Below, piece after piece: positions 5,366 through 53,756 of a stretch of DNA of 62,879 nucleotides. The notes beneath the pieces are model-generated. The model did not search any database, was not told where the DNA came from, and was given only the letters and a program-made list of their open reading frames with translations. Each line of letters starts with the position of its first letter. Within the stretch, counting starts at the first letter, position 1. The stretch is from a virus (lineage: Duplodnaviria > Caudoviricetes). The translations under genes and the position numbers were made by a program. Location: positions 1 to 62,879 of IMG/VR virus record IMGVR_UViG_3300031965_000026; one strand, written 5' to 3'.

Positions 5366-5782
5366 ATGCTGCATGCTCGCAACACCGCGTTGCTGGCAAG
5401 CGTGCGTGCGCATGAGGGCTATCGTCTCCACGCGTACCGCGACAGCGTCGGCGTGCTCACCATCGGCTACGGCTACAACGTCGAGAACGGCATGCCCCGG
5501 CCGCTCGCGGAGCTTGTCATGCGCTGGTACGTCGAGCAGGCGCTGGAGTTCCTTGCAACTTACAGCACCTGGTTCCCGCGCCTGAGTGAGAACCGCCAGC
5601 GAGCGCTCACGGAGATGATCTACCAGCTCGGGGCCAACCGCTTCGTCCGGTTCGTGCGCATGCTCCGCGCCCTCGAGGCCGGCGATTTCGATCAGGCCGC
5701 GGCCGAGATGATGACTTCCAAATGGGCCGAACAAACACCGACGAGGGCAATGCATTGTGCGCAGCTGATGCGAGAGGGTTGA
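5366..5782 (+). CDS. Endolysin, GH24/T4-like lysozyme
   Basis: HEGYRLHAYRDSVGVLTIGYGYN catalytic E/D/T motif; SKWAEQTPTRA. Confidence 0.92.
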   Translation: MLHARNTALLASVRAHEGYRLHAYRDSVGVLTIGYGYNVENGMPRPLAELVMRWYVEQALEFLATYSTWFPRLSENRQRALTEMIYQLGANRFVRFVRMLRALEAGDFDQAAAEMMTSKWAEQTPTRAMHCAQLMREG

Positions 5783-14233: not shown

Positions 14234-16396
14234 ATGCTCGAAGATCTGCACCTCCCCGTCGCCGGGGAGGACGGGACGCCTAGCGACGATGAGCACGTCG
14301 TTTCAGAAGCACGGGACCGGCTTGCTCGTGCCATCGAGTACGAATCGAACATCCGAGAGCAAGCGGCAGACGACGTCCGCTTCCTGAGCGGCGAGCAGTG
14401 GCCGCAGAAGGTCCGCCAGGAGCGCGAGGAGGACGGGCGGCCGGTCCTCACGATCAACAAGCTCCCGCAGTACGTCGAGCAGGTGGTGGGTGAGGAGCGC
14501 CAGAACCGGCCGTCCATCAAGGTGGTGCCGTCTTCCGGCGTCAGCGTGCCGAAGACCAAGAATCTGCGCGGGGACAAGGGCTACGATCTCGCCGAGATCT
14601 ACACCGGGCTCATCCGGGACATCGAGCAGCGCTCGGCCGCCGACCAAGCGTACGACTGGGCGTTCCAGCAGTCGGTCGAGCACGGGTTCGGCCACTGGCG
14701 GGTGCTGACCGAGTACTCGGGCGACGACTCCTTCGATCAGGACATCCGCATCAAGCGGATCCGGAACGCGTTCCAGGTGTACTGGGATCCGGTGTCGGAG
14801 GAGTGGGATAAGAGCGACGCGCAGTGGTGCATCGTCTCGAGCGAGATCCACAAGAACGATTTCCGTGCCCGGTGGCCGGACTCCTCGATGGCTGCTCTCG
14901 AGGGTGCCGAGGGTGACTGGACGGTGCACTGGTTCCACGACGAGCTGGTGCGCATTGCCGAGTACTGGCGCAAGGTCCCGCACACCAAGACGCTGCACCT
15001 GCTCTCCGACGGCGCGGTGGTCGACGGCGAGAAGTGGGTGAAGATTGGAGACGAGCTGGCCGAGCAGGGGATCACGAGCATCCGCGAGCGCCGGGTGAAG
15101 AGTTACAAGATCGAGTGGCGGCTCATGAACGGGGTCGAGGTGCTCGAGGGGCCGAAGGACTGGCCGGGGCAGTACATCCCGATCGTCACCTGCTACGGGC
15201 GCGAGCTCTTCGTCGACGGGCGACCCGAATACCGCGGGATCATCCGGCACGCGAAAGAGCCGCAGCGGATGTTCAACTTCTGGCGCACGAGCTCCACCGA
15301 GCAGGTGGCCCTCGCGCCCAAGGTCCCGTGGGTGGTCTCCGATGACCAGATCGACGGCTTCGAGGACCTCTGGGTGCACGCGAACACCAAGAACTACTCG
15401 TACCTGCCTTACCGCCACACGGGCGCGCCACCGCCGCAGCGTCCGACCATGCCACAGATCCCCCCGGGTGCGGTGAACGAGGCGCTGTCGGCCGGTGAGG
15501 ACATCAAGGCCGCGGTCGGCATGTACAACCCGAGCGTGGGCAACCGCGAGGATACGGCGTCGGGCATCGCCATCGAGCGGCTTCAGCGCAAGGCCGATAC
15601 CGCGACATTCTCGTTCATCGACAACCTCACGCGGGCCATCCGGCACACCGGCAAGATCCTGATCGATCTCATCCCGCGCGTGTACGACGGCGAGCGCATC
15701 GTGCGGATTGCCGCGTGGGACGAGACCGAGGACTTCGTCGAGATCAACAAGACGGTGCTCGACGAGCAAACGGGCGAGACCGTGGTCATGGCCGATCTCT
15801 CGGTCGGGCGCTATGACGTGCGGGTGCGGGCTGGGCCCTCTTACGCCACGCAGCGCGAGGAGGCGCAGGACGGGATGCTCCAGTTCATCCAGACGGTGCC
15901 GGACTTGGCCGCTCAGGTCGCCGATCTCTTCGCCGAAGCCATGGACTGGCCGAACGCGGACAAGATCGCGAAGAGACTCAAGAAGGCGCTGCCTCCCGCC
16001 ATGCTCGAGCCCGGCGAGCTCGACGAGGAGGACCAGCCGCCCCCGCCCGAGCCGACGCCCGCGGAGCAGGCCGAGCTCGCGAAGGCCGAGGCCGAGATGG
16101 CCAAGGCGGAGGCGACCAAGGCGAAGGCCGCGGCCGACACGCTCGCCGCACAGGTGGAGATGGCGACCGCCGGCCTGCACGCGGAGGCCGACGTGGTTCG
16201 CACCGAGGCCGATATCGAGAACGCCCGCACGGGCGTCGTCAACCAGCGGATGGACTCCGAGGAGCGGCTCGCGGCTCGCGGGCAAGACTCCGAGGCGCAG
16301 ATCCGAGAGCAGGTGGCCTCAGCGATCGCCGAGCTGATCGCGTCCGGCCAGCTCCAGCAGATCTTGGCCGCAGGACCGCAGCCACCCGCGCAGTAA
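14234..16396 (+). CDS. Portal protein (P22-like)
   Basis: DVRFLSGEQWP, RPVLTINKL, VRIAEYW, WPGQYIPIV, SGIAIERLQ, GRYDVRV..GPSYATQREE. Confidence 0.92.
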   Translation: MLEDLHLPVAGEDGTPSDDEHVVSEARDRLARAIEYESNIREQAADDVRFLSGEQWPQKVRQEREEDGRPVLTINKLPQYVEQVVGEERQNRPSIKVVPSSGVSVPKTKNLRGDKGYDLAEIYTGLIRDIEQRSAADQAYDWAFQQSVEHGFGHWRVLTEYSGDDSFDQDIRIKRIRNAFQVYWDPVSEEWDKSDAQWCIVSSEIHKNDFRARWPDSSMAALEGAEGDWTVHWFHDELVRIAEYWRKVPHTKTLHLLSDGAVVDGEKWVKIGDELAEQGITSIRERRVKSYKIEWRLMNGVEVLEGPKDWPGQYIPIVTCYGRELFVDGRPEYRGIIRHAKEPQRMFNFWRTSSTEQVALAPKVPWVVSDDQIDGFEDLWVHANTKNYSYLPYRHTGAPPPQRPTMPQIPPGAVNEALSAGEDIKAAVGMYNPSVGNREDTASGIAIERLQRKADTATFSFIDNLTRAIRHTGKILIDLIPRVYDGERIVRIAAWDETEDFVEINKTVLDEQTGETVVMADLSVGRYDVRVRAGPSYATQREEAQDGMLQFIQTVPDLAAQVADLFAEAMDWPNADKIAKRLKKALPPAMLEPGELDEEDQPPPPEPTPAEQAELAKAEAEMAKAEATKAKAAADTLAAQVEMATAGLHAEADVVRTEADIENARTGVVNQRMDSEERLAARGQDSEAQIREQVASAIAELIASGQLQQILAAGPQPPAQ

Positions 16397-30946: not shown

Positions 30947-32232
30947 TGGCGCAATATAACTTCATGTCGCTTCCCGACGCTGCGCTGGCGGCCGAGCGGG
31001 TTCAGGGCGCCCAGCAGAACCGAGAGATCAACGCGTTCAAGATGGATCAGGCGCGGTCGGAGGCGCCGATGCGTGCGCAGCGCAACGAGCTGGCGATCCG
31101 TCAGGGAGAGCAGAGCCTCCGGCAGGGCGACCAGGCATACATGATGGCGGGCTTCGAGCACTTCATTAAGCGCTCTGGGTTGGTGGGGGACCAGGCCACA
31201 TATGGCGCGTGGGTGCAGCAGGGCATGCAGCAGGGGCTTATTGATCCCGGTGAGTTCCCCGAGCAATACGATCCCGAGATGATGCGCAGGCTCCGGGGTG
31301 AGGCGACGAAGAAGCTCCAGCAGTTCACCACGAATCTCGGGGGCGGGCGGGCTCGCGACGACATGTACACGAACGGGGAGCTCACCAATCAGGGGCCCGA
31401 GTACAACGCGCTCGACTACAACGCGGCCAAGATGCCGGGCGCCTCGGTGCAGCACCTGTCGGTGCTCTCGCGTGCGCTGCGTGCGAAGGACCCCAGCCTC
31501 AGCGAGCACGACGCCACGCTCAAGGCCCAGGAGCTCATCGGCCAGGCGAAGGAGAAGCCGCGCAACGAGGTCGAGCAGAAGGTATGGGCGGATGCGCTCG
31601 AGGCCGGCTTCGGTGACACCGCGGCGGCGGACGCGGCGCTCGAGGCGTTCCGTGAGAAGTTCCCGTCCGGCGGTCCTCCGGCACCTGCGCCGGTGGCAGA
31701 TACGCCAGCCCCAGCGAATGCGCTGGCGCCCGCGACGGACAAGGTGCCGACCGTCGGCACGCGCGAGGCGTACGACGCACTCCCGAAGGGCGCGCGCTAC
31801 CGGGCGCCGGACGGGAAGGTGAGGGTCAAGGGTGAGGATTCGTCTTCTGCGGGAAAGCCCGCGCCAACAAGCATCGCTTCGCCTGCGCCTCCAACCGAGC
31901 CCGCAACGAGGCACCCGCCTTCAGACCCTGGCGTTAGCGAAAGTCGCTCTGGGCCGTCTGATGACAATCCTCAGCTTGAATCCGTGCTGCAAGAAATGGA
32001 GTCCGTTGTCGATGGACAAGGCTTCTTCAACCTGGGAGGAGACAAAGCTCGGCAGCTTGCGCTGCAATTGGAGTCGTTCATGAATGTCGGTGGCTCTCGT
32101 GAGCAAATGCAACGAGCGAAGTATGTTTTCGATCGCCTGATGTCCACCCCCAAGGACTCTAGAGGCGGTCAACGACCAAGCATAGGGTCTGTGGCTCGAG
32201 ACGTCATCGGGAACGCTCTTCGTGGCCAGTAA
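30946..32232 (+). CDS. Ejection protein
   Basis: Position; YDALPKGARYRAPDG motif. Confidence 0.6.
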   Translation: MAQYNFMSLPDAALAAERVQGAQQNREINAFKMDQARSEAPMRAQRNELAIRQGEQSLRQGDQAYMMAGFEHFIKRSGLVGDQATYGAWVQQGMQQGLIDPGEFPEQYDPEMMRRLRGEATKKLQQFTTNLGGGRARDDMYTNGELTNQGPEYNALDYNAAKMPGASVQHLSVLSRALRAKDPSLSEHDATLKAQELIGQAKEKPRNEVEQKVWADALEAGFGDTAAADAALEAFREKFPSGGPPAPAPVADTPAPANALAPATDKVPTVGTREAYDALPKGARYRAPDGKVRVKGEDSSSAGKPAPTSIASPAPPTEPATRHPPSDPGVSESRSGPSDDNPQLESVLQEMESVVDGQGFFNLGGDKARQLALQLESFMNVGGSREQMQRAKYVFDRLMSTPKDSRGGQRPSIGSVARDVIGNALRGQ

Positions 32233-34867
32233 CCCGAACTTCTGGGAGGCCGACAAGGTCGTCGACGAGGGTAACTTCTGGGAGGCCGATCCGCTCGACC
32301 AGGAGTTCGAAGAGAAACGCACCTTTGGCGAAGCCGCCTCCGACCTGGGCGTGTCCTTCGCATCGGGCGCCGGGGCGATGGTCGAGAACCTCGGCCGTAT
32401 CGGCGCACTCGTCCAGGGGAAGGACGAGAACGTTGCAACCCGGCACGGAGGGCGCGCCCGGGAGTTCTGGGACGAGCGCAAGTCCGAGGGCCTCAAGGCG
32501 CGCGAACGTCGGCGTACCGAGTCCATCGAGGGCGCAGAGGGGATCGTCGGCAAGGCTGTGGCCGCGGCCGGAGAGACGCTGCTCGATCCAGCACTGCTCT
32601 CGTCCTGGCTCGCAGAGCAAGTGCCGATGCTGGTGCCGAGTGCCGGCGCCGGCCGGGTTGCGGGGGCCGGGGCGGCTGCGCTCGGTGCTTCGTCCAAGGT
32701 GGCCGGGCGAACCGCGCTCGGGACGGCAATCGGGACCGGGGCGGCACAGCAGGGGGCTGACGTGGGTGGAGACGCCTACGAAGGTCTCATGGAGATGTCT
32801 CCCGATCTGTGGGCCAAGAACGGGGCCTATCAGGCGCTCGTGCAGGAGGGGCTGGACGACAACGCGGCCCGTCACGCGGTCGCGATCGAGCTGTCGCGTG
32901 ACGCGGCGCTGAAGGGCGCGCTCGTCTCGGCCGCGACCAACGCTATCCCCGGCGCGCTGGTGCTCGAGCGTGCGCTGGTGGGCGCGAAGATCCCGGCCGC
33001 CGGCAAGCTGCGCGCGATGGTCATCGGCGCGTTCGGCGAAACGGCGCAGGAGATGACGGAGGAGGGCACCGGGCGGGCGATTGCCAACCTTGCGCGTGGG
33101 CAGATCGATCCGTCCGTGCCGGTCTCCGAGGGGGTAGGCGAAGCCATCGGCATGGCAGCGCCGGCCGGCCTGTTCGGTGCCGCAGGCGGTCTCGCTGCTC
33201 CGGCGCGCCCGAACGTGCCGCCGCCGCCCCCGTCCGAGCCGCCCCCCGGCCAGCAGGCGGGCGCCGCACCGTCCGCGCCCCCCGGCCAGCCGACCATGGG
33301 CGATCTCGTCACGCAGAAGCTCAAGGAGCTCGGCGTCGAGTTCCGGACGCCGGTCGAGGTCCAGCCGACGTTCGAGCGCAAGCCCGAGTACCCGGGCGGC
33401 ATCGACTTCGTCCCACCCCCCGCCGGCGCCCAGCCGACTGCCGAGGACGCGTTCGTCGCAGGCGCGCCTACTCCGTCGCGCTACCCCGGGGGAATCGACT
33501 ACGTTCCGCCCGGCGCCCGTCCACCTGCGCCCCTGGACGCCGAGCTCGAGGCGGTTATCGCGGCCGATCCGGTGGTCGAGCAGGCGCCGGCACCGGCGCC
33601 CATGGAGCCCGGGATCCCCTACGGCGAGGGCGCCCCCGGCCGGCTCGGCGTGGAGACCCGGGTGGAGGGCGAACCCGTGTCCCGGACGGAGCCGGAGGCG
33701 CCCCCGTTACTTTCTTCCCCCACGATCGAGGGGGAGAAAATTAACACGCCGGTGCCGGAGGTGGCCCCGGTCAAGGGTGAGCCAGCCGCGCCCCCCGCCT
33801 CCCCGCGCGACCGCTATTACCAGGAGCAAGTGGATACCAAGCGCGGCGACATCCTCTCGGCGATCGCAAAGAAGGGCGGCCTCGATCTGGACGAGTCCGT
33901 GGGCTTCGGGGTCGACCCGGCCGAGCGCAACCGCCGGGGCTGGAAGATCGCCCCCGTGTTCAAGGCGAACGGCAAGGGCCAGTCGTGGGACGCGATGGCC
34001 GAGGTGCTGGCCGAGCAGGGCTGGCCGACCGTCGACGAGAAGGGCAACCCCGATCCCAACGTGCTGGCCGAGCTCGTGCACGACGCGCTGCTCGGGAAGA
34101 AAGTTGCGCACCCGGCCGCGGACGTCGATATGGACGCCGCGTTCGAGGCGTTCACCGCCGGCGACACCTACCTCGAGGCCGAGGAGTACGCCGGGCTCCA
34201 GGACGGCGACCGGGTGCTTATGGACGCCACCGAGTGGGCGGAGGACGCCGGGCTCGACCGTGATACGATTGATGAGATCATCGAGCGCGGCGCGATGCAG
34301 GACCGCACCGATGCCGAGATCGCCGAGGAGCTACGCGATGCCGCCCAACGAATCCGCGCTGAGGGTGCTGAAGCTGCGCCGGCAGAACCAGGCGAAAGGG
34401 CACAAGCCCAAGCGCCGGAAGCGTTCGTCCTCGCCGCCCAGTCAGAAGCCGACGTTGCCGAGCAAGAGCGAAGCCGAGCCGACACCGCCCGCGCTCGAGC
34501 GCTAGACGAGGAGCGCACCAAGGCCGACGCCGAGCGCGACCGGTTCTCCCTGACTGGCTCCGACCGTGAGGCCGACCTGGCTGCCGCGGCCGGGCAGCAA
34601 GATCTGCTTGCGGCGGCGCCCCCGAAGTCACCCCCAGCGCTCCCGAAGTCACCCCCGGCGCCACCGGCGCCTACCCCCCCAACCGCCCGCGATAAGCTGC
34701 GCGCCAAGCGCCCGGCGAAGGCGCTCTCCGCCATCCAGCTCAAAGAGCGCGCGCAGGACGAGGAGGGGAACGTCTACGAGATCACTCGTTCGGCCGAGGA
34801 GGTGCTCGGCGAGCACGACCAGCGGCTGAAGGCGCTCAACACCTTGCTGGACTGTCTCGCGTCATGA
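32222..34867 (+). CDS. Large ejection/internal virion protein
   Basis: Gly/Ala-rich membrane-like region, GETAQEMTEE, Pro-rich linker. Confidence 0.65.
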   Translation: MASNPNFWEADKVVDEGNFWEADPLDQEFEEKRTFGEAASDLGVSFASGAGAMVENLGRIGALVQGKDENVATRHGGRAREFWDERKSEGLKARERRRTESIEGAEGIVGKAVAAAGETLLDPALLSSWLAEQVPMLVPSAGAGRVAGAGAAALGASSKVAGRTALGTAIGTGAAQQGADVGGDAYEGLMEMSPDLWAKNGAYQALVQEGLDDNAARHAVAIELSRDAALKGALVSAATNAIPGALVLERALVGAKIPAAGKLRAMVIGAFGETAQEMTEEGTGRAIANLARGQIDPSVPVSEGVGEAIGMAAPAGLFGAAGGLAAPARPNVPPPPPSEPPPGQQAGAAPSAPPGQPTMGDLVTQKLKELGVEFRTPVEVQPTFERKPEYPGGIDFVPPPAGAQPTAEDAFVAGAPTPSRYPGGIDYVPPGARPPAPLDAELEAVIAADPVVEQAPAPAPMEPGIPYGEGAPGRLGVETRVEGEPVSRTEPEAPPLLSSPTIEGEKINTPVPEVAPVKGEPAAPPASPRDRYYQEQVDTKRGDILSAIAKKGGLDLDESVGFGVDPAERNRRGWKIAPVFKANGKGQSWDAMAEVLAEQGWPTVDEKGNPDPNVLAELVHDALLGKKVAHPAADVDMDAAFEAFTAGDTYLEAEEYAGLQDGDRVLMDATEWAEDAGLDRDTIDEIIERGAMQDRTDAEIAEELRDAAQRIRAEGAEAAPAEPGERAQAQAPEAFVLAAQSEADVAEQERSRADTARARALDEERTKADAERDRFSLTGSDREADLAAAAGQQDLLAAAPPKSPPALPKSPPAPPAPTPPTARDKLRAKRPAKALSAIQLKERAQDEEGNVYEITRSAEEVLGEHDQRLKALNTLLDCLAS

Positions 34868-38068: not shown

Positions 38069-38568
38069 TGGCCGTCACCCGCCTCGGCCTCTACGGCGGG
38101 CCGGGGCGCCCCTACGGGAGCTTCTCAGGCAAGTCCTCCGGCGCCCCGGTCGATACCGACCAGGTCACCCGCCTTGGTCTCTACGGCGGCCCCCAGGGCC
38201 TCTACGGCAGCTTCGAGGGGAAGGCTGGCACACCCCCTGCCGTCGATACCGATCAAGTCACCAGGCTCGGCCTGTGCGGCGGGCCCCAGGGGCTTTACGG
38301 TAGCTTCGAGGGCAAGACGGGTGCGCCGCCTGTCGTCGACACCGACCAGGTCACCCGCCTCGGTCTCTATGGCGGTCCCCAAGGGCTTTATGGGAGCTTC
38401 GAGGGCAAGGTGGCCTTCGTGCCTCCGCCTGTCGTCGTCGACGAGGATGTGCGCGGCGGGTACCCCCTCTTCGACCATGCCGGGCACCGGCGCCGGCACC
38501 TGCACGACGAGCGCGATCTTCTCGACATCCTATTCATCTGGACGAGCAACGACCGATGGCGGCACTGA
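38068..38568 (+). CDS. Repeat protein, 4x VTRLGLxGGPxxxYGSFxGK
   Basis: Four units of about 30 aa, visible in both DNA and protein. Confidence 0.75.
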   Translation: MAVTRLGLYGGPGRPYGSFSGKSSGAPVDTDQVTRLGLYGGPQGLYGSFEGKAGTPPAVDTDQVTRLGLCGGPQGLYGSFEGKTGAPPVVDTDQVTRLGLYGGPQGLYGSFEGKVAFVPPPVVVDEDVRGGYPLFDHAGHRRRHLHDERDLLDILFIWTSNDRWRH

Positions 38569-41500
38569 CGACCTGTATCAAGCGCCACCGCAAGGCCCTC
38601 GAGGCGGCGGGCATTGACGTTGACGCGCTGAAGGCACGCGCGCGCGAGCTGCGCGCCGAGGACGGGCTCGAGCCGCACGTGGCCGCCATGACCGCGGTGG
38701 AGGAGCTGCTCGAGGAGGCGGAGGGCGCGCGGGCCGAGACCGTGGCCGAGGTGGAGCGCCGGGGCGGGGTGGTGACCCGGGAGGCGGCACCCGAACCTGT
38801 TCAGGACGCACCGCTCGCCGCGTACCGCAACGAGAAAGACGGCACTGAGGCCCGCATCGTGCGACACGACTCCGGCGGCTATTCGGTCACGCTGAGGGAT
38901 ACCGACGCAGACGCGGCCATGCCGGTCGCGCGTATCTTCCCCGACATGGAGCGCGCCGACGCGTATGCGCGCAGCCTGGTGGCGGCGCCAGGCACGCAGG
39001 CTGATGCGGCGCAGGCGGCGGAGCCGGCCCCGATATCCGACGTGGAGCAGGCCGCTCCGAAGGAACGCAAATTCGCATCGACGCAGCTCCCGGTGCAGGC
39101 CGAGTTCAGCGGGTCGGTGCAGGCTGTCGCGCGCGGGCTCATCGATCCGCAGGACATCTATCCGGAGAAGGGCCTCGAGACCGATCCGCACATCACGCTA
39201 AAGTACGGTTTGCACACCGACGCCGCGCAGGACGTGGCACCGTTGCTCGCAGGCGCGGGGCCGATCGAGGCGCGCGTCGAGGGTATCGAGGTGTTCGAGG
39301 GCGTCGAGGATGGACGCGCCGACGCGATCGTCCTTCGGGTCGAAAGCCCGAAGCTACGTGAGCTGAACCGTCGGGTAAGCGATGCTCTCGAGACCACGGA
39401 TACCTACCCTGAGTACAAGCCGCACATCACGCTTGGCTACGTCAAGGCGGGACAAGGGCGGAAGTATGCGGGCGCCTGGACGCCTCTCGACGGGCTGACG
39501 ATCACGCTCTCGCAGGTCGATTTCTCGGCACGCTCGGGTGTTAAGACGCCGATCGCACTCGGAGGGTCACAGTCGACCGCGGAGCTCTCGCCCTCGAGCC
39601 AGGCGGCTGCCGAGGGCACGCAGCGGGTGCGCCAGCAGAAGGCAGCCGAGGAGCCAGCGAAGGCGCCTATAGAAGATTTCGGAGCGGTGCTAGAGGGCGC
39701 CCGCAAGCATTACGCCGCAGCGTATCGCGAGAAGCTCAAGGAGGCCGGCGAGCTCGACATCACCACCGAGCCGCTCTCGCGCTCGTGGCCAGAGCCGGAC
39801 TACCAGCGCCTGCTCGATGACGGGGCCGATCCGTGGACCGTGGCGTTCGTGCATGCCGCTCGTGATGAGGTGCCGCCGAAGCCGCGCAAGGCGTGGAAGA
39901 TCAAGGGCTGGTCCGTGGACGTCCGCACGCTACGCGACTTCGCCGACGACCTGTTGGGCGGAAAGAAGACGTCCGAGCACATGCGCTCTTGGCTCGATGT
40001 TCATAGCCACACCCCCATGAACGACCGGATGTCCGGGCGTGTTGATCTATACCTCGCGGTCGGCCACACGAAGTCGCTGAGCGGCGTGCGGGTCGTGAGG
40101 GGCCAGTACAGCATGCTCGAGGGCAAGCCCCAGAAGCCGCCCAAGGTGATCTGGTCGGTGGAGAAGCCGGCGAAGGCGAGCGCCTGGAGCAACTGGCCCC
40201 GCACCCTGGCACAGGGCGATACGCGCGAGGCGGCGATCGAAGCGTTCAAGAAAAGCTTCGCCCACTTCGGCGACGAGAAGCCGGCCCGCGAGGTGCGCTT
40301 CGATATCTACTCCCGACGCAAACAAGACGGGTTCTTCATCGGGAAGAAGATCGGGCGCAACACCATCGATCTGAAACGCTTCGACGACGTGAAGTCTGCG
40401 CGCGCCTACCTCGCCGACCACCATGACGATCTGGTCAAGGCGCTCGAGGCGTACAAGGACATCCCGGCCCACCGGAAGGAGACGAACTCACCACGCGTCG
40501 GCATCGACCACCGGTCGGGGGGCGACGTGACGCCCGAGGCGTTCGCAGAAGCGTTCGGGTTCCGCGGGGTCCAATTTGGAAATTATGTGGAGGGAGGGCG
40601 CCGGCAGGCCGATCTGAACGAGGCGTACGACGCCCTGATGGATCTCGCCGGCATCCTGGGCGTTCCGCCCCGTGCTCTGTCCCTGAACGGCGAGCTCGGC
40701 CTTGCGTTCGGTGCGCGCGGCAAGGGCGGCAAGAATGCGGCACGAGCCCACTACGAGCCGGGTACCGTCGTCATCAACCTGACGAAGACCAAGGGCGCGG
40801 GCTCGCTCGCTCATGAGTTTTTCCATGCGCTCGACAACTATTTCTCCCGCCTGCGGGGCAGGGGGGCCGACTACCTGACGGAGAGCCCCGCGCCCGGCGA
40901 GGGCGTGCGCCCGGAGATGGTCGAGGCGTTCGGAGAGGTGCGAAAGGCGATCCGAGCAACGGAGATCGCCACCCGGTCGCGCCGGCTGGACGCGAAACGG
41001 ACCAAGGACTACTGGAGCACCGGGCGCGAGCTGTCTGCGCGGGCGTTCGAGAACTACGTCATCGCGAAGCTGGCGGACGAAGGCCAGTCGAACGACTACC
41101 TCGCGAACATCGTCTCCGAGCGCGCCTGGAACGCAAAGATCTCACTCGGGCTCGAGGAGGGGGAGACTTACCCCTACCTTCAGGCCGGCGAGGTGCCCGC
41201 GGTTCGTGCGGCGTTCGACAACTTCTTCAGCGTGGTCGAGACGCGCGAGACGGACACCGGGGTGACGTTGTTCTCGCGGACGCCAACGGGCAAGCCGGCG
41301 GCTGCCGGCCTCTCCGTCCCCGACGTCGAGCGCGCGATCGCCAAGGTGCGCAATGCCTGGAAAGGCGGCCCGCTCATCAAGGTCGTGCCATCCATGGACG
41401 CACTGCCCGAGGGCGTACGTTCCCAGCTCGGAGGAGGCCCAGGAACCATCGTCGAGGGTTCGTATTACCGGGGGGAGGTCTACCTGGTTGCGGACGCAAT

Positions 41501-44500
41501 CGTCTCTGGGCGGGGGGCCCGCCGGATCCTTGCACACGAGGTGGTGGGCCACCACTCCATGGAGGAGATGCTGGGGGACCGGTTCGGGGAGGTGCTGGAG
41601 CGGGTGATGCAGCTCTGGAGAGCCCAGGACCGGGCATTGCTCCCCATCATGGAGGAGGTCATCGACCGGTGGGGGCTAGAGCCCGGTGTGGACAGCGCGA
41701 CCAACGCAATATTCGCCTCCGAGGTCATCGCCGTGATCGCGGAGAAGCGCCCGTCCGAGCCCCGGCTACAGGCGCTCCTGCGCACCGTGCGCGAGGCGGT
41801 TCGCCGGTTCCTGCGCCGGCTCGGCTTCGTCGATCTGTTCAGCGCAACGGATCTTGATATCCTGATCTCGCAGGCCGGTCGACGACTACGCACTGGTAGC
41901 CAGGCCCGTCCGCCAGTTGACGAGGGGGCGCGCTTCTCTACGGAGGCTGATGATGGACAAAAACCAGGACGGCGTGGAGATCCCGGACATGGGCGATCCG
42001 GACAGGAAGTGCAAGTCGCTTTCCGAACTGGTAGCGGAGGGCGTCCTGACGAATCGTGGCGCGATTCAACTCGCGTCCGCCGAAAAGGCCGGCCTGCTCG
42101 CGTCTTCCGGGGAAGCCGAGAAGGACTCCGATCCGAAGACTTCGAGCTAACCCGTCGGGGGCACGCCACTGGGCACCCGTCGTCCGGCCTGGGGGTCTTC
42201 TTCAGCGACGACCGCGCCGACGCCGAGCATTACGGCGGCGTTGTCGACGAACGCTATCTCGACGTCCGCAAGCCCAAGATCTACCGCGCCGAGAACATGC
42301 CCGGCTTCGACTCGGTCGAGGACGCGCACGCCTTCGCACGCAAGCTCCAGGCCGAGGGCTACGACGGGATCATCATGACGGCCGCCCACCTGGGCGGACC
42401 CACCCACGTCGTGGCGTTCTCGTCCGAGCAGATCATCGAGGAGGTCGCTCGTTTCTCCCGCCAGTACACCCCGGAGCAGGAGGCGGCCATCAAGCGAGGC
42501 AAGTTCGGGCAGCGCCCGGCACTTCCCTTGCGTCAGCGGATAGCGAAGTCTCGGGACAACCTGAAGGCGAAGCTCCGACAAGGGGCGATCGACCAGTTCG
42601 ATTCGTTCCGCACGGTCCTCTACGACTCGCGCACCTGGATGATGGCGCAGCTCACCCACTCCTCGACGGGCGCCCTGGACGCGACCATCCGCTACGGCCA
42701 GCCGGTGCTCATACAGAACGCGGTCACCATCCGCCCACGCACCAAGGGGCTGCGCGAGGTGCTCGAGCCGCTCGGCCACGAGACCGACGATTTCTTACGC
42801 TGGATTGCCGGGCACCGCGCCGAGCGGCTGGCGACCGAGGGCAAGGAGCGGCTGTTCAGTCCACAGGATATCGCGGCGCTTCAGAGCCTTGACCAGGGGA
42901 CCATGGCCGACGGCCGGCAGCGCGCCAGGGTGTACGACGCCGTGCGCCAGGACTTCGAGGCGCTCTCCGCGGCGGTCGTGCAGATCGCGGTGGACACCGG
43001 GCTCGTGAACGACACCGAGGCGCAGGAGTGGCGCAACGAGGGCTTTTACGTTCCTTTCTACCGGCTCCTCGAGGAGGAGGGCGTCACCCGTGGCCCCCGC
43101 GGCTTTAGCGGGCTCGTGCGCCAGAACGCGTACAAGAAGCTCACGGGCGCGGACATCCCGCTCGAGGATCTCTTGACCAATGTGCTCCTCAACTGGCAGC
43201 ACCTGCTCGGTGCCTCGCTCAAGAACCAGGCCGCGCGCCATGCGCTAGAGACGGCCGAGACGATGGGCCTCGCCCAGCGCAAGACCGCGCACACGAAGGG
43301 CAACAAGGCGGTCTTCGTCCGTGAGGACGGCAAGCAAGTCTGGTACGACCTCGACTCATCGACCGAGGGGCAGCTCGTGCTCCAGGCGCTCACCGCGCTG
43401 TCGTTCGACGGGCTGAACAACTTCACCATGCGCGTGCTGCGCGGATTCAAGCGTACGTACACCGTGGGCGTCACCGCCTCCCCGGGGTTCAAGGTCCGCA
43501 ACCTCCTGCGCGACTCCATCCAGGCGGTCGCGGTCTCGGGGGTCTCGGCGAACGTCGGCGCGAACCTGTACAAGGGCTGGAAGGCAACGAAGCCCGGGGG
43601 CGCGACCGACGTCGCCATGCTCGCAGGCGGCGGCTCGTTCGGGCACTCCGGCTACATCCACGGGGCCGACCCGAGCGCCATCAAGCACCTCGTGCGCCGG
43701 GGCATCGACCGCAATACCATCCTCACGTCGCCGTCCTCCATCCTCCGGGTACTTCAGCGGTATTCCGGGTGGGACGCCTACCAGGACTTCGGGGCCCGCC
43801 TCGAGAACGTGAACCGGGCGGCCGACTTCGAGCGGGCCATCCTCGAGGGCAAGGACCTCCTGGAGGCGAACTTCCGGGCCCGGGACCACGTCGACTTCTC
43901 GCGCACCGGCGCGTGGGTCGCGGTCCGCGCGCTCGCCCAGGTCGTGCCCTTCCTGAACGCCCGCCTCCAGGGGCTCGACAAGCTGGCCCGCTCGTCGGTC
44001 GATCCCAAGCAGCGGCGCCGGTTCCACGTGACCGTGGCGCTCTACTCGCTGGCCTCCGTGCTCCTCTACCTTGCGATGAAGGACGACGACGACTACAAGG
44101 CGGCCGAGGACTGGGAGCGCGACGCCTACCACCTGTTCAAGCTGCCGGGATCCGATCTCCTGTTCCGCATTCCCCGTCCGTTCGAGGTGGGGGCCATCGC
44201 CTCGATCGCCGAGCGCGGTGCCGAGCAGTGGTTCGACGACGAGGTGCATGTGCCGCTCTTCTTCGAGCGCATGTTCCACGCACTGTGGGAGACGCTCAGC
44301 TTCAATCCGATGCCCCAGGCGTTCATGCCCGTCATCGAGCTCTACGCGAATAAGGACACGTTCACCGGCCGCCCCATCGAGCCGCCGCACGCTCGTCGGA
44401 ACATGTCGCCCACGAGCATTAAGCAAGCCTGGACGAGCGACACGGCGATCGAGATCAGCCATGGCATGGATGCGGCAACCTGGGGCAAGGTGGTGTTGAG

Positions 44501-44981
44501 CCCAGTGCAGATCGAGCACCTGGTCGAGGGCTACTTCGGGTGGCTGGGGGCGACCACTCTTGGTGCGTCAGATCTCGCCATCAGGGGCGCGGTAGGCGCG
44601 CCGGACCAGCCGTCCAAGCGCGTCGACCAGGTCCCGTTCATCAAGGACTTCGTGCGAGCTGCCCCCCGCTTCTCGACCCGATACACCACCGAGTTCTACG
44701 AGGCGATGGAGGAGGCGAACCGGCTCTTCGGCGATATCCGGGAGGCGCGCCGGGACCGAGATCCGGAGAAGGCGAAGGCCATACAGGAAACAGCGAAGGA
44801 CAAGCTCAGGTACCGGTTGATGCTGAACCGGACGTCCCGGCAGCTCACGAAGCTCAACGCGCAGATCCGAAACATCCGGGTCGACCGGGACATGACCTCC
44901 GAGCGCAAGCGCCAGGAGATGGACCGGCTGCTCGCGATCAAGAACAACCTGACGAAGCGGGCGGTGGAGCGGGTGCGCTAG
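38556..44981 (+). CDS. Giant polyvalent (probably injected) protein: 2H phosphoesterase, LPD5/LPD1-like, zincin, ART-like and LPD38-like domains
   Basis: HITL x2; GVQFGNYV...AHEFFHALD; AHEVVGHH; GVFFS...GYDGII; RIPRPFEVG. Confidence 0.8.
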   Translation: MAALTTCIKRHRKALEAAGIDVDALKARARELRAEDGLEPHVAAMTAVEELLEEAEGARAETVAEVERRGGVVTREAAPEPVQDAPLAAYRNEKDGTEARIVRHDSGGYSVTLRDTDADAAMPVARIFPDMERADAYARSLVAAPGTQADAAQAAEPAPISDVEQAAPKERKFASTQLPVQAEFSGSVQAVARGLIDPQDIYPEKGLETDPHITLKYGLHTDAAQDVAPLLAGAGPIEARVEGIEVFEGVEDGRADAIVLRVESPKLRELNRRVSDALETTDTYPEYKPHITLGYVKAGQGRKYAGAWTPLDGLTITLSQVDFSARSGVKTPIALGGSQSTAELSPSSQAAAEGTQRVRQQKAAEEPAKAPIEDFGAVLEGARKHYAAAYREKLKEAGELDITTEPLSRSWPEPDYQRLLDDGADPWTVAFVHAARDEVPPKPRKAWKIKGWSVDVRTLRDFADDLLGGKKTSEHMRSWLDVHSHTPMNDRMSGRVDLYLAVGHTKSLSGVRVVRGQYSMLEGKPQKPPKVIWSVEKPAKASAWSNWPRTLAQGDTREAAIEAFKKSFAHFGDEKPAREVRFDIYSRRKQDGFFIGKKIGRNTIDLKRFDDVKSARAYLADHHDDLVKALEAYKDIPAHRKETNSPRVGIDHRSGGDVTPEAFAEAFGFRGVQFGNYVEGGRRQADLNEAYDALMDLAGILGVPPRALSLNGELGLAFGARGKGGKNAARAHYEPGTVVINLTKTKGAGSLAHEFFHALDNYFSRLRGRGADYLTESPAPGEGVRPEMVEAFGEVRKAIRATEIATRSRRLDAKRTKDYWSTGRELSARAFENYVIAKLADEGQSNDYLANIVSERAWNAKISLGLEEGETYPYLQAGEVPAVRAAFDNFFSVVETRETDTGVTLFSRTPTGKPAAAGLSVPDVERAIAKVRNAWKGGPLIKVVPSMDALPEGVRSQLGGGPGTIVEGSYYRGEVYLVADAIVSGRGARRILAHEVVGHHSMEEMLGDRFGEVLERVMQLWRAQDRALLPIMEEVIDRWGLEPGVDSATNAIFASEVIAVIAEKRPSEPRLQALLRTVREAVRRFLRRLGFVDLFSATDLDILISQAGRRLRTGSQARPPVDEGARFSTEADDGQKPGRRGDPGHGRSGQEVQVAFRTGSGGRPDESWRDSTRVRRKGRPARVFRGSREGLRSEDFELTRRGHATGHPSSGLGVFFSDDRADAEHYGGVVDERYLDVRKPKIYRAENMPGFDSVEDAHAFARKLQAEGYDGIIMTAAHLGGPTHVVAFSSEQIIEEVARFSRQYTPEQEAAIKRGKFGQRPALPLRQRIAKSRDNLKAKLRQGAIDQFDSFRTVLYDSRTWMMAQLTHSSTGALDATIRYGQPVLIQNAVTIRPRTKGLREVLEPLGHETDDFLRWIAGHRAERLATEGKERLFSPQDIAALQSLDQGTMADGRQRARVYDAVRQDFEALSAAVVQIAVDTGLVNDTEAQEWRNEGFYVPFYRLLEEEGVTRGPRGFSGLVRQNAYKKLTGADIPLEDLLTNVLLNWQHLLGASLKNQAARHALETAETMGLAQRKTAHTKGNKAVFVREDGKQVWYDLDSSTEGQLVLQALTALSFDGLNNFTMRVLRGFKRTYTVGVTASPGFKVRNLLRDSIQAVAVSGVSANVGANLYKGWKATKPGGATDVAMLAGGGSFGHSGYIHGADPSAIKHLVRRGIDRNTILTSPSSILRVLQRYSGWDAYQDFGARLENVNRAADFERAILEGKDLLEANFRARDHVDFSRTGAWVAVRALAQVVPFLNARLQGLDKLARSSVDPKQRRRFHVTVALYSLASVLLYLAMKDDDDYKAAEDWERDAYHLFKLPGSDLLFRIPRPFEVGAIASIAERGAEQWFDDEVHVPLFFERMFHALWETLSFNPMPQAFMPVIELYANKDTFTGRPIEPPHARRNMSPTSIKQAWTSDTAIEISHGMDAATWGKVVLSPVQIEHLVEGYFGWLGATTLGASDLAIRGAVGAPDQPSKRVDQVPFIKDFVRAAPRFSTRYTTEFYEAMEEANRLFGDIREARRDRDPEKAKAIQETAKDKLRYRLMLNRTSRQLTKLNAQIRNIRVDRDMTSERKRQEMDRLLAIKNNLTKRAVERVR

Positions 44982-50004: not shown

Positions 50005-50205
50005 GTGTCTTTCTCTTCCTGTGCTTGTAGGTGTTCGTCCCGCAGCAACCCCTTCAGTCGGCGGTTGCCGCATGGCCGGCAGAACTCGCCGAACGACACG
50101 TTGCGCGTGTTGAACAACTCGACCTCCGCGCGAGCCCCGCAGTCGCGGCACTGACGCACGAGCCGGCGTAGGTGGGCGGGCATGGGTTAGGGGGTGCCTT
50201 GTGTG

Positions 50206-50281
50206 CCTGTAGGCGGGAGTGACGGGGCAACTCATTCAATGGGCGTCAGCCGTGCAATGACCCCGCCACGCCCGCCACAGG
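50206..50281 (-). ncRNA. Solitary TIGR-like stem-loop guide unit spanning the Tas stop codon
   Basis: Long stem enclosing GTCA-TTGCACGGC-TGACGCCCA-TTGAATGAG(T)-TGCC. Confidence 0.65.
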
Positions 50282-51351
50282 TCTTTCAGTAACTTCTTCT
50301 CCATCACGCGCTTGGCGTGGTTGTCAATGTGCTTGGGGGTGTACTTGTAGACGGGCTTCCCCTTGCTGTCCGTGTGGCTGAACTCCTTCTCTGGATGCTT
50401 CTCCTTCCACCGCGCTTTCACCGCGAGATAGAAGTCGTAATAGCCGGGACTCTTGGCCTTTATGAGGGGGCCGCCGAGCGTCCACATGACAGCGCGTCGC
50501 TCGGCCACGTAGCCGTGCTCGAGCGCTTCATCCCCCTTCACGCGACGCTGGCGCTCGCCGTAGATGACGGCGAGGCCCATGCGCTTCCAGAGCTTGGCGG
50601 GATTCGCGTAGCGCGAGAGATCGCCGGCCTCGCCAACGATCTGGCCGAGCCCGAACTCACCGAACCCCGGGACGGACTTCTGCCAGGCGTGCACCGGGAG
50701 CTGCTTCGCGAGCTTCTGGATCTCTCGGCGAATCGGCAGCCGGCTCTTTCGAATGACGCTCATCGCGATGGCCAGGGTCTCGGTTGTGAAAAAGGCGGCG
50801 CGCTCGGGATCGCTGTCGCTCCCAAGTTTCTTGACTGCCTCGGCAGTGCCTCGCTCGATCGCCTGGATCTGAAGATTCAGGCGTATCTCCGCGCGAAGAA
50901 GTTGCCTGTGTATGCGCTCCTTTTCGGCGATCTTGTCGATGAGTTTCGCGATGGCGGGGGCGGTCGATTTCTGGACATCAGAGCACTTCTGGCCCCCGTC
51001 ATCGCGAAAGGGATCTGCCGATGGGGCGCCTTGGTGCTGGACGTCAAGGACATCCTGGCCGCCATCGGCAGAAGAGGGCTCTGTCGGCGGAGCAATCGCG
51101 CCGTGGGCATCAGGGCATGCATGGCTTTCACCGACAGAACAGGGGTCTTCCGGCCGGGCACCCACACGCTGGTCGTCGGACGTCCAATGGCCTCGACCGG
51201 AAGAAAGGGGTTCCGCTGACCGGGCAGGCTGCCCTTGGGCGTCTGTACGACCCTGGCCTCGGTCAGCGGAAGAAGGGGCCGGCGGGACAGCCGCGGTGTA
51301 GGCATCGTAGGATGTGTGGTCGCCGCCGGCAAAATCGTTGGGACTAGTCAC
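50236..51351 (-). CDS. Nop-domain / IS110-related protein without RuvC (TasA-like)
   Basis: Coiled coil, SVPGFGEFGLGQIVGEAGDLSRYANPAKLWKRMGL, C-terminal AKRVMEKKLLKDLW; no DEDD domain and no IS110 SG serine motif seen. Confidence 0.8.
   Translation of the reverse strand: MTSPNDFAGGDHTSYDAYTAAVPPAPSSADRGQGRTDAQGQPARSAEPLSSGRGHWTSDDQRVGARPEDPCSVGESHACPDAHGAIAPPTEPSSADGGQDVLDVQHQGAPSADPFRDDGGQKCSDVQKSTAPAIAKLIDKIAEKERIHRQLLRAEIRLNLQIQAIERGTAEAVKKLGSDSDPERAAFFTTETLAIAMSVIRKSRLPIRREIQKLAKQLPVHAWQKSVPGFGEFGLGQIVGEAGDLSRYANPAKLWKRMGLAVIYGERQRRVKGDEALEHGYVAERRAVMWTLGGPLIKAKSPGYYDFYLAVKARWKEKHPEKEFSHTDSKGKPVYKYTPKHIDNHAKRVMEKKLLKDLWRAWRGHCTADAH
50944..51333 (-). repeat. TIGR-like stem-loop array, 6 dual-spacer units
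   Basis: Each unit: unique stem, RCCA, N9, (Y/A)GAYGNC(C/T)A, N9, YGYY, complementary stem; periods 63, 66, 66, 66, 66 nt. Confidence 0.85.
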
Positions 51352-51943
51352 GGTTCGCCTGCCTCTGGAGCTTCTCCAGCTCCTCCGGCGTGTACACGTC
51401 GCGCACCTTCTTGTTCGCCGAGAGCTTCTTGGCGATCAACGTGTAGAATCGGGCCTCGATCGCATTCGAGCGCGCCAGGGTCGAGTGCCCGTCGATCATC
51501 TGGCGTATCTCGACGATTGTCGCGTCACCCAGCGCTAGCCCTCCGGTTATCGGATGGTCGAACAACGTTTCCTCGCGCTCCTCGGCTATCTGCTCGCGAC
51601 CAGAGAGACGGCTCCGAAAGTGCTCCACCGTCGGTTTGTTGTCCGTCACGGAGCGCGCCTCGCTGCGCAATCTGGAGCGCTTGTGCCGATGGATCTCTCT
51701 AGCCACATTGCGAGACGATGCCATCAGCGCGGGCCGGGCGAGCGTCGTGAACAGGTCCTGGTCTTCCTCGATCCAGCGCTCGAACAGGTCGCAGGCTGCG
51801 TCCCAGTTGTCGTGCGCTTCATCCAGCGCGCGGGACATCACGGCGTGCATGGTTGCCTTGGGGCCGAAGCGCGGGGTGCTCTCAGACGAGTCACCACCGG
51901 ACGCGGCGGGGTCAACGCGATAGGCTTGTGCTTGCTCAGTCAT
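51344..51943 (-). CDS. Hypothetical protein coupled to the Tas-like gene
   Basis: GAGGAG RBS; stop overlaps the Tas start; same lower-GC block. Confidence 0.75.
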   Translation of the reverse strand: MTEQAQAYRVDPAASGGDSSESTPRFGPKATMHAVMSRALDEAHDNWDAACDLFERWIEEDQDLFTTLARPALMASSRNVAREIHRHKRSRLRSEARSVTDNKPTVEHFRSRLSGREQIAEEREETLFDHPITGGLALGDATIVEIRQMIDGHSTLARSNAIEARFYTLIAKKLSANKKVRDVYTPEELEKLQRQANRD

Positions 51944-52165: not shown

Positions 52166-53756
52166 CCTCGGTCCTCCATTGATAGCTCTCTATTTTTGGA
52201 TACTTACCGGCAATGCGTACCCAGATGGCTTCCGGTTCGCGCAACTTGTTTCCGTCGATACTCAACCAAAGAAGCGCTTCTTCAACCGAGCCTGGAACCA
52301 GAGAGATGGAACGCTCTTGCCACCAACGTTCAGCGCGATAGCGTGCGTAGTTGGTTTGGTCGTGAGAAAGCGCTATCCATTCCCGATACACGATCAGCCC
52401 GCAGTGATAGTCTACGCGCAGGGTGGGTATCCCGCTTTTGCCCTCGTGACGGTGATACGACACCCGGTCGACCGGCACCCGCTCGGGCGGCTGGGAGAGG
52501 ATGGCAAGCTCCGTCGGCTTGTCATCATGCGGAGCGTCGCCGGCCGACGACTCCCACTGGTAGCCGCAGCTCGGGCAGAGCATCACCGAGAGGAGCACGA
52601 TCTCGTCGCACGTCGGGCACACCTTCGTCGGCGCCGCACCCGGCTCGCGGGGCCTTGCGCCCTTGACGTCGATCGCGTCGATCGGCCCGTGCTCTGCAAT
52701 ATTTCCAGCGAAGTCGAGCACGAGGCAGTCTTGCTTTCGCGGGTGGATCCGAAGCCCGCGTCCCACAAACTGGTAGTAGAGCCCCGCGCTCTTCGTGGGG
52801 CGCAGCATGATCACCGCGTCGATGTGCGGCGCGTCATAGCCCTCGCTCAGCACGTTGACGTTCACCAGCGCCGGGATCTTCCCCGTCTGGTGGTTGCGGA
52901 TATGCCGGTCCCGCTCCTCCCTGGGCGTCTCGGAGGACACCACGGGTGCGGTAACGCCCAGCGCGAAAAGCGCACGGCTGATCTGGTGCGCATGTTCGAT
53001 ACCGGCACAGAACACGAGCCAGGCGCGCCGATTGGCGCAGCGATCCACGATCTCGCGTGCCGTGCGCTCGACCAGATCGCCGGCGGTGACCGCGCGCTCG
53101 AGCTCGTCGGCCCGATACTCGCCGCCCCGGACGTGGACGCTGCCGAGCTCGGCGTGGGCCTTCGTCGCTTTCGATGTAAGCCTGCATAGATACCCCTCCT
53201 CGATCAACTGACGAATGGGCGCCTCGTAGGCAATCGCGTTCAGGATGTAGCTGGGGCCGACGACCATCCCGGGCCCGAGCCGGTACGGGGTCGCCGTGAA
53301 GCCGATGACGCGCAAGTGCGGCGTCTGCGCCTTCGCCTCGGCGATGAAGCGGCGGTACACACCCTCGCCCGCGAGCGGGATTCGGTGCGCCTCGTCGACG
53401 AAGATCAAATCGAGCGGCCCGATCTCAGCCGCCCGGCGATAGACGCTCTGAATCGAAGCAAAGATGATCGGGCTCTGCGTATCACGATACCCGAGCCCGG
53501 CCGAGTACACGCCCATCGGCGCCTCGGGCCAGTGCACGGCGAGTTTCTCAGCGTTCTGACGGACTAATTCGCGAGTATGAGCAAGGATGCAGATCCGCGT
53601 GCTCGGCCACTGCGTGAGGTACTCGCGCACCATCTCTGCGAAGACGACACTTTTTCCCGACCCGGTCGGGAGAACTATGCAGGCGTTATCAGCGTGCGCC
53701 CTCATATAAGCGTTCACCGCGTCGATGGATTCCCGCTGATATGCCCTAATCTGCAC
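52125..53756 (-). CDS. SF2 DEAH helicase with C-terminal Zn ribbon (RadD-like)
   Basis: LPTGSGKS, VDEAH, GFTATP, QFVGRGLR, CPTC..CPSCG. Confidence 0.92.
   Translation of the reverse strand: MQIRAYQRESIDAVNAYMRAHADNACIVLPTGSGKSVVFAEMVREYLTQWPSTRICILAHTRELVRQNAEKLAVHWPEAPMGVYSAGLGYRDTQSPIIFASIQSVYRRAAEIGPLDLIFVDEAHRIPLAGEGVYRRFIAEAKAQTPHLRVIGFTATPYRLGPGMVVGPSYILNAIAYEAPIRQLIEEGYLCRLTSKATKAHAELGSVHVRGGEYRADELERAVTAGDLVERTAREIVDRCANRRAWLVFCAGIEHAHQISRALFALGVTAPVVSSETPREERDRHIRNHQTGKIPALVNVNVLSEGYDAPHIDAVIMLRPTKSAGLYYQFVGRGLRIHPRKQDCLVLDFAGNIAEHGPIDAIDVKGARPREPGAAPTKVCPTCDEIVLLSVMLCPSCGYQWESSAGDAPHDDKPTELAILSQPPERVPVDRVSYHRHEGKSGIPTLRVDYHCGLIVYREWIALSHDQTNYARYRAERWWQERSISLVPGSVEEALLWLSIDGNKLREPEAIWVRIAGKYPKIESYQWRTEDGTVHSRQASATN

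Follow-up and report, generated by a model that had tools for sequence, protein, structure and literature searches.

In stem-loop TIGR-Tas systems, the guide RNAs (tigRNAs) carry two spacers of 8-12 nucleotides (nt) between a box C (CCA) and a box D (UG), and palindromic stems of variable sequence stand where other arrays have edge repeats; the arrays are reported to be transcribed, cut into single hairpin units and loaded onto TasA (Faure 2025, PMC12045711). Such arrays can lie within tas at the 5′ end, at the 3′ end or internally, with the frame kept and with TasA N-termini that are extended and disordered; processing boundaries fall at a CUU of the stem base, and the Y/H processing loop of Tas is described as absent in stem-loop clades (Xu 2026, bioRxiv 10.64898/2026.09.09.750476). 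In the same report, MbTasA binds target DNA and reversibly represses transcription. PlTasA is described as a coiled-coil dimer that opens a continuous DNA stretch, each 9-nt spacer pairing with a different strand to form 9-bp heteroduplexes (Guan 2026, bioRxiv 10.64898/2026.08.11.744272). The literature already covers stem-loop TIGR-TasA systems, arrays embedded in tas, and RNA-guided repression by TasA (Faure 2025; Xu 2026; Guan 2026). Here, we analyze positions 50,206 to 51,351 of IMG/VR virus record IMGVR_UViG_3300031965_000026 (62,879 nt; the whole record is called the window). The locus is very probably a stem-loop TIGR-TasA system carried by a temperate soil phage, and it adds to the published cases a clean, fully embedded locus with phage genome context.

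PlTasA, from a Peromyscus leucopus gut contig, is like the protein encoded here in that it is a nuclease-less coiled coil plus Nop protein with 9-nt spacers and a disordered N-terminus, a likeness drawn from published descriptions. It has 13 units in three subarrays approximately 450 nt apart, whereas the present locus has seven units, all overlapping the tasA open reading frame (ORF), and its setting is a gut contig instead of a 62.9-kb temperate soil phage with 66% G+C. At BlTasA (Bifidobacterium longum) and other intragenic-tigRNA loci, units lie in the tas coding sequence (CDS) with the frame kept and with a 9-nt loop, as here; the BlTasA intragenic unit maps to the wedge loop, whereas here the units make up the whole N-terminal tail and one lies across the stop codon. 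The array in frame and the disordered N-terminal tail thus match the account of intragenic arrays given by Xu et al. (2026). The systems in that account have a CUU-type motif at stem bases, found here in four of seven units, and by analogy with MbTasA, an RNA-guided repressor, repression without cleavage would be expected here too. TaTasR (9MTY) and SpTasH (9VZX, 9W02-9W04, 21KL) share with the present system the coiled coil plus Nop fold (template modeling (TM) score 0.62-0.68), the CCA/UG boxes and, as predicted here, dual spacers addressing both DNA strands. Unlike the present protein, they have RuvC or HNH domains, cut DNA, and use conserved edge/loop repeats and 36-nt guides; identity to them is 18-20%. 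The IS110/IS621 bridge-RNA recombinases have a related RNA-binding C-terminal domain and guide loops reading both strands, but the present locus has neither a catalytic domain nor a single bridge RNA.

Direct reading of the sequence shows six hairpin units of the same design on the minus strand, from 51330 to 50944. Each is composed of a stem arm, (A/C)GGCCA, 9 variable nt, a 9-nt loop (YGAYGNCCA), 9 variable nt, YGCC and the other stem arm. An initial annotation of the locus had listed these six units, all of which are real, but not a seventh at 50276-50212. Its eighteen 9-mers (six triplets of spacer A, loop and spacer B) were all exact on the minus strand, and the unique stem that it assigned to each unit was recovered as six different inverted repeats with hairpin folds. 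The units and the gene that contains them are listed below with the folding z-score and the score under covariance model R1, which was built from 135 units of relatives, none from the window, and was run on the window with filters off.

50236..51351, minus strand: tasA ORF, 371 codons, GTG start; array at codons ~8-136, coiled coil plus Nop core at ~127-366
51278..51330, minus strand: unit U1, core 51288-51319; degenerate loop CGAUGCCUA; spacers CACATCCTA / CACCGCGGC; fold z -2.7; R1 20.3 bits, E 0.049
51211..51271, minus strand: unit U2, core 51225-51256; spacers GGGTCGTAC / AGGGCAGCC; loop AGACGCCCA; fold z -5.8; R1 24.0 bits
51146..51204, minus strand: unit U3, core 51159-51190; spacers TTGGACGTC / GCGTGTGGG; loop CGACGACCA; fold z -2.1; R1 27.1 bits
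51078..51140, minus strand: unit U4, core 51093-51124; spacers TGCATGCCC / CGGCGCGAT; loop TGATGCCCA; fold z -4.1; R1 21.8 bits
51014..51072, minus strand: unit U5, core 51027-51058; spacers GGATGTCCT / GCACCAAGG; loop TGACGTCCA; fold z -5.5; R1 26.0 bits
50944..51009, minus strand: unit U6, core 50961-50992; spacers GAAGTGCTC / GAAATCGAC; loop TGATGTCCA; fold z -5.4; R1 37.6 bits, E 1e-5
50212..50276, minus strand: unit U7, loop UGACGCCCA; 5′ box C is UCA; tasA stop codon (50236-50238) inside spacer B; fold z -4.2; R1 21.0 bits, E 0.034

The 5′ CCA was present in all six of U1-U6 (UCA in U7), as was the 3′ YG, and the spacers were 9+9 nt; the 14 spacers of the seven units were all different. 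The loop contained NGA..CCA in five of the six units. The conserved CCA and GA/TG boxes of the initial annotation were thus found in most units, but the loop box C of U1 is CUA and U2 has AGA for UGA. The closing inverted repeats were 8-18 nt long, six different ones with one per unit core. The folding check that had been suggested gave a closed hairpin for each of U1-U6 (z from -2.1 to -5.8), and the 416-nt stretch folded into six separate hairpins (z = -7.4; 0 of 100 shuffles equally stable). The linkers between units were pyrimidine-rich (CCCYUUCUU). The 3′ half of U6 supplies the codons for the start of the coiled-coil helix, and the 5′ arm of U7 supplies the codons of the conserved C-terminal WRAWR motif. 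A U7-like unit starting at the C-terminal motif was found in 16 of the 65 relatives with a locatable motif, and the stop codon was within the unit in 4 of these 16. Nine nt of the U5 5′ arm are complementary to the U6 3′ arm (CGATGGCGG / CCGCCATCG), and the stems of both units are alike, which hints at array growth by unit duplication or at alternative pairing.

The motif CCA-N9-NGAYGNCYA-N9-YG had six matches in 62,879 nt, with 0.09 expected, and 0 of 100 shuffles reached six. All six were on the minus strand, at spacings of 63, 66, 66, 66 and 66 nt, all multiples of 3. When one mismatch was allowed, three extra scattered matches appeared (3.0 expected), which is chance level. The top seven R1 matches in the window were, in order, U6, U3, U5, U2, U4, U7 and U1 (37.6-20.3 bits); the eighth scored 15.3 bits (E 0.57; 75 listed at E ≤ 10). 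Tandem Repeats Finder returned nothing and Rfam nothing above noise, as expected because the units have only about 14 letters in common; a weak Rfam match of hairpin type lies at 50205-50282, over U7. A loose motif with a 7-bp stem and loop CGCACGCTA was also seen at 52316-52369 (minus strand), within the helicase gene; it had no R1 match at E ≤ 10 and was taken as chance.

The same units were found in relatives. A word-indexed search gave 559 TasA homologs, and 96 loci were taken (76 from IMG/VR and 20 from genomes; 93 distinct). The core motif CCA-N9-NG-N4-CCA-N9-YG, with no stem required, had 278 occurrences on the tas strand of the 93 loci and 18 on the opposite one. Of the 278 motifs, 214 were flanked by a perfect stem of 6 bp or more, compared with 20 of 278 when the 3′ flank was shifted by 40 nt. 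Units were clustered within approximately 1 kb of tas; at least one strict unit was present in 60 of 93 loci and at least two were present in 49. The 214 units contained 198 distinct spacers A and 197 distinct spacers B. Among 259 distinct motif-bearing 52-mers, 194 paired at 7 or more of 10 adjacent positions, and 135 of these, drawn at random, were aligned. In this alignment, 88.5% of stem cells were paired, compared with 59.3% after shuffling and 38-53% in slid controls, and 474 cells showed double-sided stem changes (167 after shuffling). Because the rows were preselected for pairing, the weight rests on the double-sided changes and on the shifted-flank stem control.

The protein encoded by tasA matched NCBIfam NF052498 TIGR_Tas_endo (“TIGR-Tas system RNA-guided endonuclease”) above the cut-off (107.1 bits vs 100; residues 150-363, profile positions 10-215 of 215). 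In a sequence search of the PDB, the single protein had one match with E < 0.1, 9MTY (TasR; 3.6e-8), the TasR-tigRNA-DNA complex of Faure et al.; with a profile of 120 homologs, the same entry was the sole match with E < 0.01 (5.7e-23). PHROG 4285 was matched at 3e-19. The AlphaFold2 model of residues 121-371, made with the homolog alignment, showed a long helical hairpin that leads into a helical domain (predicted local distance difference test (pLDDT) 93.8; predicted TM score (pTM) 0.87). In Foldseek against the PDB, ranks 1-10 were occupied by TasR and TasH chains only (E 8e-8 to 2e-6, TM 0.62-0.68), with IS110 recombinases (E ~1e-3) and archaeal Nop5 (E 0.19) at lower ranks. All residues invariant over 25 aligned sequences (this protein and 24 homologs) were present. 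No RuvC or HNH domain was detected in TasA by family and fold searches, and no Pfam, NCBIfam or PHROG match covered residues 1-128, the array region, where codon composition is non-coding-like. Given the Tas family and fold matches and the lack of any match over residues 1-128, sequence and model place the protein in the TasA type, with coiled coil and Nop core alone. These results agree with the initial annotation in its TIGR-Tas/TasA assignment, in a core of IS110/Nop type with a coiled coil, and in the lack of RuvC and HNH; the protein is not adjoining the array, as had been stated, because the array is inside its ORF.

By analogy with the published relatives, the system would most likely work as follows. 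An early minus-strand transcript with the replication and recombination genes would read through a conserved upstream gene, here called the partner, into tasA, and its 5′ approximately 400 nt of tasA would fold into six hairpin tigRNA units, with the seventh over the stop codon. Each unit would display two 9-nt spacers, with box C (CCA) before and box D (UG) after each, a 9-nt loop between them and a stem of its own. The units would be excised at the pyrimidine-rich linkers, and each would be bound by a TasA dimer through its coiled coil and Nop domain. This ribonucleoprotein would open 18 bp of DNA, and spacers A and B would pair with opposite strands. Because TasA has no detectable nuclease domain, the complex would be expected to bind and block transcription without cutting.

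The target, read on the top strand, would consist of spacer A and, directly after it with no gap, spacer B in reverse complement (18 bp). This geometry, already proposed in the initial annotation, is derived from the published cut rule and the published 8-nt 3′ overhangs. The scan of the window covered both geometries and allowed gaps of 0-2 and at most 3 mismatches. A U5 match with 2 mismatches lies in the portal gene at 14739-14756 (plus strand) but has the reverse geometry, in which A as its reverse complement precedes B; as a U5 target it is excluded by the published 3′ overhang and is probably due to chance. When the guides of relatives were compared with their own 6-7-kb loci, the best-match distributions for 214 units were the same as those of three controls. 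Across IMG/VR, exact 18-mers were sought for three guides, for which chance would give approximately 1-2 matches per pattern, a rough estimate based on a guessed collection size in bases. The one U5 match found is at 5725-5742 (minus strand) of L101, an unrelated 10-kb contig with 67% G+C, in a phrog_777 major head gene; a single match fits chance, no other guide matches L101, and we rejected it as a genuine target. The same match was the only one when the guides of the window were compared with 101 loci (613 kb). Xu et al. (2026, bioRxiv 10.64898/2026.09.09.750476) note that false positives are numerous with short spacers, that few natural targets have been determined and that the search for targets is hampered at most TIGR loci by missing genomic context. 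Here, the phage genome context is in hand and self-targeting can be excluded at ≤2 mismatches, which points to targets in the host or in rival elements.

Several results weigh against a working TasA system of this kind. In the target geometry, the window contained no self-target at ≤2 mismatches and a single 3-mismatch match, as in controls; allowing G-U wobble gave 25 matches, compared with 40 in the control geometry. The exact searches of IMG/VR gave 0, 1 and 0 matches for U6, U5 and U3. Boxes were degenerate in two of the seven units (CUA in the U1 loop and UCA in U7). A CUU was found 5′ of U2, U3, U5 and U6 but not 5′ of U1, U4 and U7, and a crude scan of relatives found it within -12 to +2 of the stem in 36 of 228 units. 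No promoter-like (sigma-70) or terminator-like site beyond chance was found next to the array, so that co-transcription with the early genes is the simplest inference. As for the protein, identity to solved Tas proteins is only 18-20%, and the name of NF052498 is that of an endonuclease, which the TasA found here cannot be. The lack of an N-terminal fold consists of blank family searches and a low-confidence model, since the single-sequence model of the entire ORF was poor (pLDDT 44.8) with no confident N-terminal fold.

The same TasA and tigRNA machine could have another job, acting through the partner or as a DNA-bending aid to recombination, integration or replication, which we consider unlikely. 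The position of the gene is in line with such a role: tasA is on the minus strand in a replication/recombination block, with overlapping gene ends upstream; helicase, HNH endonuclease, Cas4-type exonuclease, SSB and Sak4 genes are upstream of it, and the integrase gene is 3.7 kb downstream on the same strand. The partner is upstream of tasA in 58 of the 73 relatives with sufficient flank (at least 1.7 kb), and Faure et al. (PMC12045711) speculate that TasA could help phage integrases by DNA bending. On the other hand, DNA binding and reversible repression are the only tested TasA activities in the reports of Xu (2026) and Guan (2026), no guide matches the phage's own genome, the vicinity of the integrase included, and the partner belongs to no recognizable enzymatic or DNA-binding family.

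That the locus is a decaying or inactive relic, with units no longer processed or loaded, is quite improbable. The degenerate boxes of U1 and U7 and the target scans without result would fit decay, but in five units all boxes are intact and the stem is strong, and the unit spacing of 63/66 nt preserves the frame. The ORF is intact, with the invariant residues present and a core whose G+C content at third codon positions (GC3) is of coding type (0.81).

The array is within the tasA ORF, with six units in the 5′ coding part and the seventh across the stop codon, and the six repeats might be regarded as merely a repetitive, disordered N-terminal protein segment with incidental hairpins. The frame is open through all six units, which share one common frame, and canonical starts are found only upstream of or within the array: ahead of the core, in-frame ATG, GTG or TTG codons occur at codons 1 and 63 only. 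A GAGG precedes codon 1 by approximately 11 nt, and codon 1 overlaps the stop of the upstream gene. The modeled coiled-coil helix begins at residue ~127, within U6. Since the helix starts within U6 and the only starts are codons 1 and 63, the array is probably translated, to judge from the ORF structure. However, G+C content at codon positions 1, 2 and 3 was 0.74, 0.61 and 0.62 in the array and 0.63, 0.41 and 0.81 in the core, with neighboring genes being core-like; thus, the array part is not like coding sequence in composition. In relatives, 150 units were within the stop-free tas frame and 58 were outside it (n = 208), and those inside used either of the two frames left open by the UGA box (88 and 62). 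The motif is nearly confined to one strand and the stems covary, but the peptide shows no conservation: homologs have N-terminal extensions of 0 to ~170 amino acids (aa) that are unalignable. The variation of spacer A in relatives likewise runs counter to conservation of the 9-mers as protein, the outcome that the initial annotation had named as contrary to its proposal. A mere protein segment is, accordingly, an explanation to which we give almost no credence.

A fragment of an IS110-family transposase with a bridge-RNA-like element is just as implausible: a sub-threshold Pfam Transposase_20 match (16.7 bits vs a cut-off of 21.3), PHROG “transposase” labels and IS621/ISCro4 as more distant fold matches speak for it, but the NCBIfam IS110 model reached 27.4 bits against a cut-off of 140 (residues 142-262 only), the locus has seven units in tandem instead of a single bipartite bridge RNA, and the fold matches are four orders of magnitude weaker than those to Tas proteins. 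IS110 recombinases have a RuvC-like catalytic domain in the N-terminal region, where the present protein had no family match.

Two by-products of the analysis of this probable TIGR-TasA locus are perhaps more useful than the locus itself: the partner gene and the presence of the same unit type in cultured phages. The partner is located as follows.

51344..51943, minus strand: partner ORF, 199 aa; stop codon overlapping the GTG start of tasA

The partner had no match in Pfam, PHROGs, NCBIfam or PADLOC. A word-indexed homolog search with it gave 6 proteins, and phmmer found homologs in 34 loci; a domain-trimmed iterated profile raised the number to 66 of 97 distinct loci, and in every one of them the gene is on the tas strand, immediately upstream of tas. 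Iteration without trimming gave 69 loci, at risk of drift into the array-encoded peptide. The motif L.D.PL.GG..LGDAT was common to the homologs, and the distance from the partner to the conserved WKRMG motif was 749 nt here (median 736 nt). The partner's own model (ESM Atlas) had a pTM of 0.32 and matched unnamed viral clusters only; its profile matched only designed helical repeat proteins in the PDB. Pfam searches with 54 members gave no consistent family and no ParB domain recognizable by sequence. The only partner described by Faure et al. (PMC12045711) is ParB-like and occurs with dual-repeat tasA; the main texts of Faure 2025 and Xu 2026 contain no mention that we found of the present one, which their supplements may list.

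With the array inside the tasA frame, a given transcript should be able either to release guides or to be translated into full-length TasA, but not both, and because all guides are within the tasA mRNA, cutting them out would destroy the message. We tentatively propose that the system of this clade may be three-part and self-regulating, consisting of partner, TasA and guides inside the tasA mRNA, a possibility that we rate as rather doubtful. The partner (~170-200 aa and all-alpha-looking) could supply the missing function, either guide maturation at the linkers or a recruited effector. If self-regulation were true, TasA would control the protein:guide ratio by binding its own mRNA before processing.

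R1 units (E ≤ 0.1) were found, all on the tas strand, beside the TasA homologs of four cultured phages outside the training set of the model.

MW960032.1, tas strand: Rhizobium phage RHph_X2_25, 9 units at E ≤ 0.1
KY224000.1, tas strand: Mycobacterium phage Rich, TasA homolog gp50, 7 units at E ≤ 0.1
MH271305.1, tas strand: Gordonia phage Morrissey, TasA homolog gp42, 7 units at E ≤ 0.1
MH153807.1, tas strand: Rhodococcus phage Peregrin, TasA homolog gp187, 1 unit, weak

The TasA genes of these phages are annotated as hypothetical, and some units are within annotated CDSs (in Rich, gp51 and gp50). Morrissey, Rich and RHph_X2_25 are cultured and have known laboratory hosts, respectively G. terrae, M. 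smegmatis mc2 155 and S. americanum, which makes the natural role of TasA genetically approachable.

The window is the whole virus record (62.9 kb, 66% G+C). A look-up of sequencing runs gave two of soil DNA, one of which may be where the record comes from, and none of RNA. It contains genes for a terminase, a P22-type portal, a major head protein, a head closure protein and a tyrosine integrase, in addition to the helicase, HNH endonuclease, Cas4-type exonuclease, SSB and Sak4. With terminase, portal, head and integrase genes all there, it looks like a near-complete temperate phage genome, and the phage-borne nature of the locus stands as first described. No tRNA gene was found in the window, and PADLOC gave no match. 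The best homolog of the portal was 54% identical, and among phages the portal matched those of Vibrio and Thalassomonas phages at ~40% identity; the genome with the closest tasA relative gave no portal homolog. Two long ORFs were observed in the virion-gene region, both on the plus strand: one of 2141 aa at 38556-44981, and one of 881 aa at 32222-34867 that weakly matches virion RNA polymerase and DarB-like antirestriction families.

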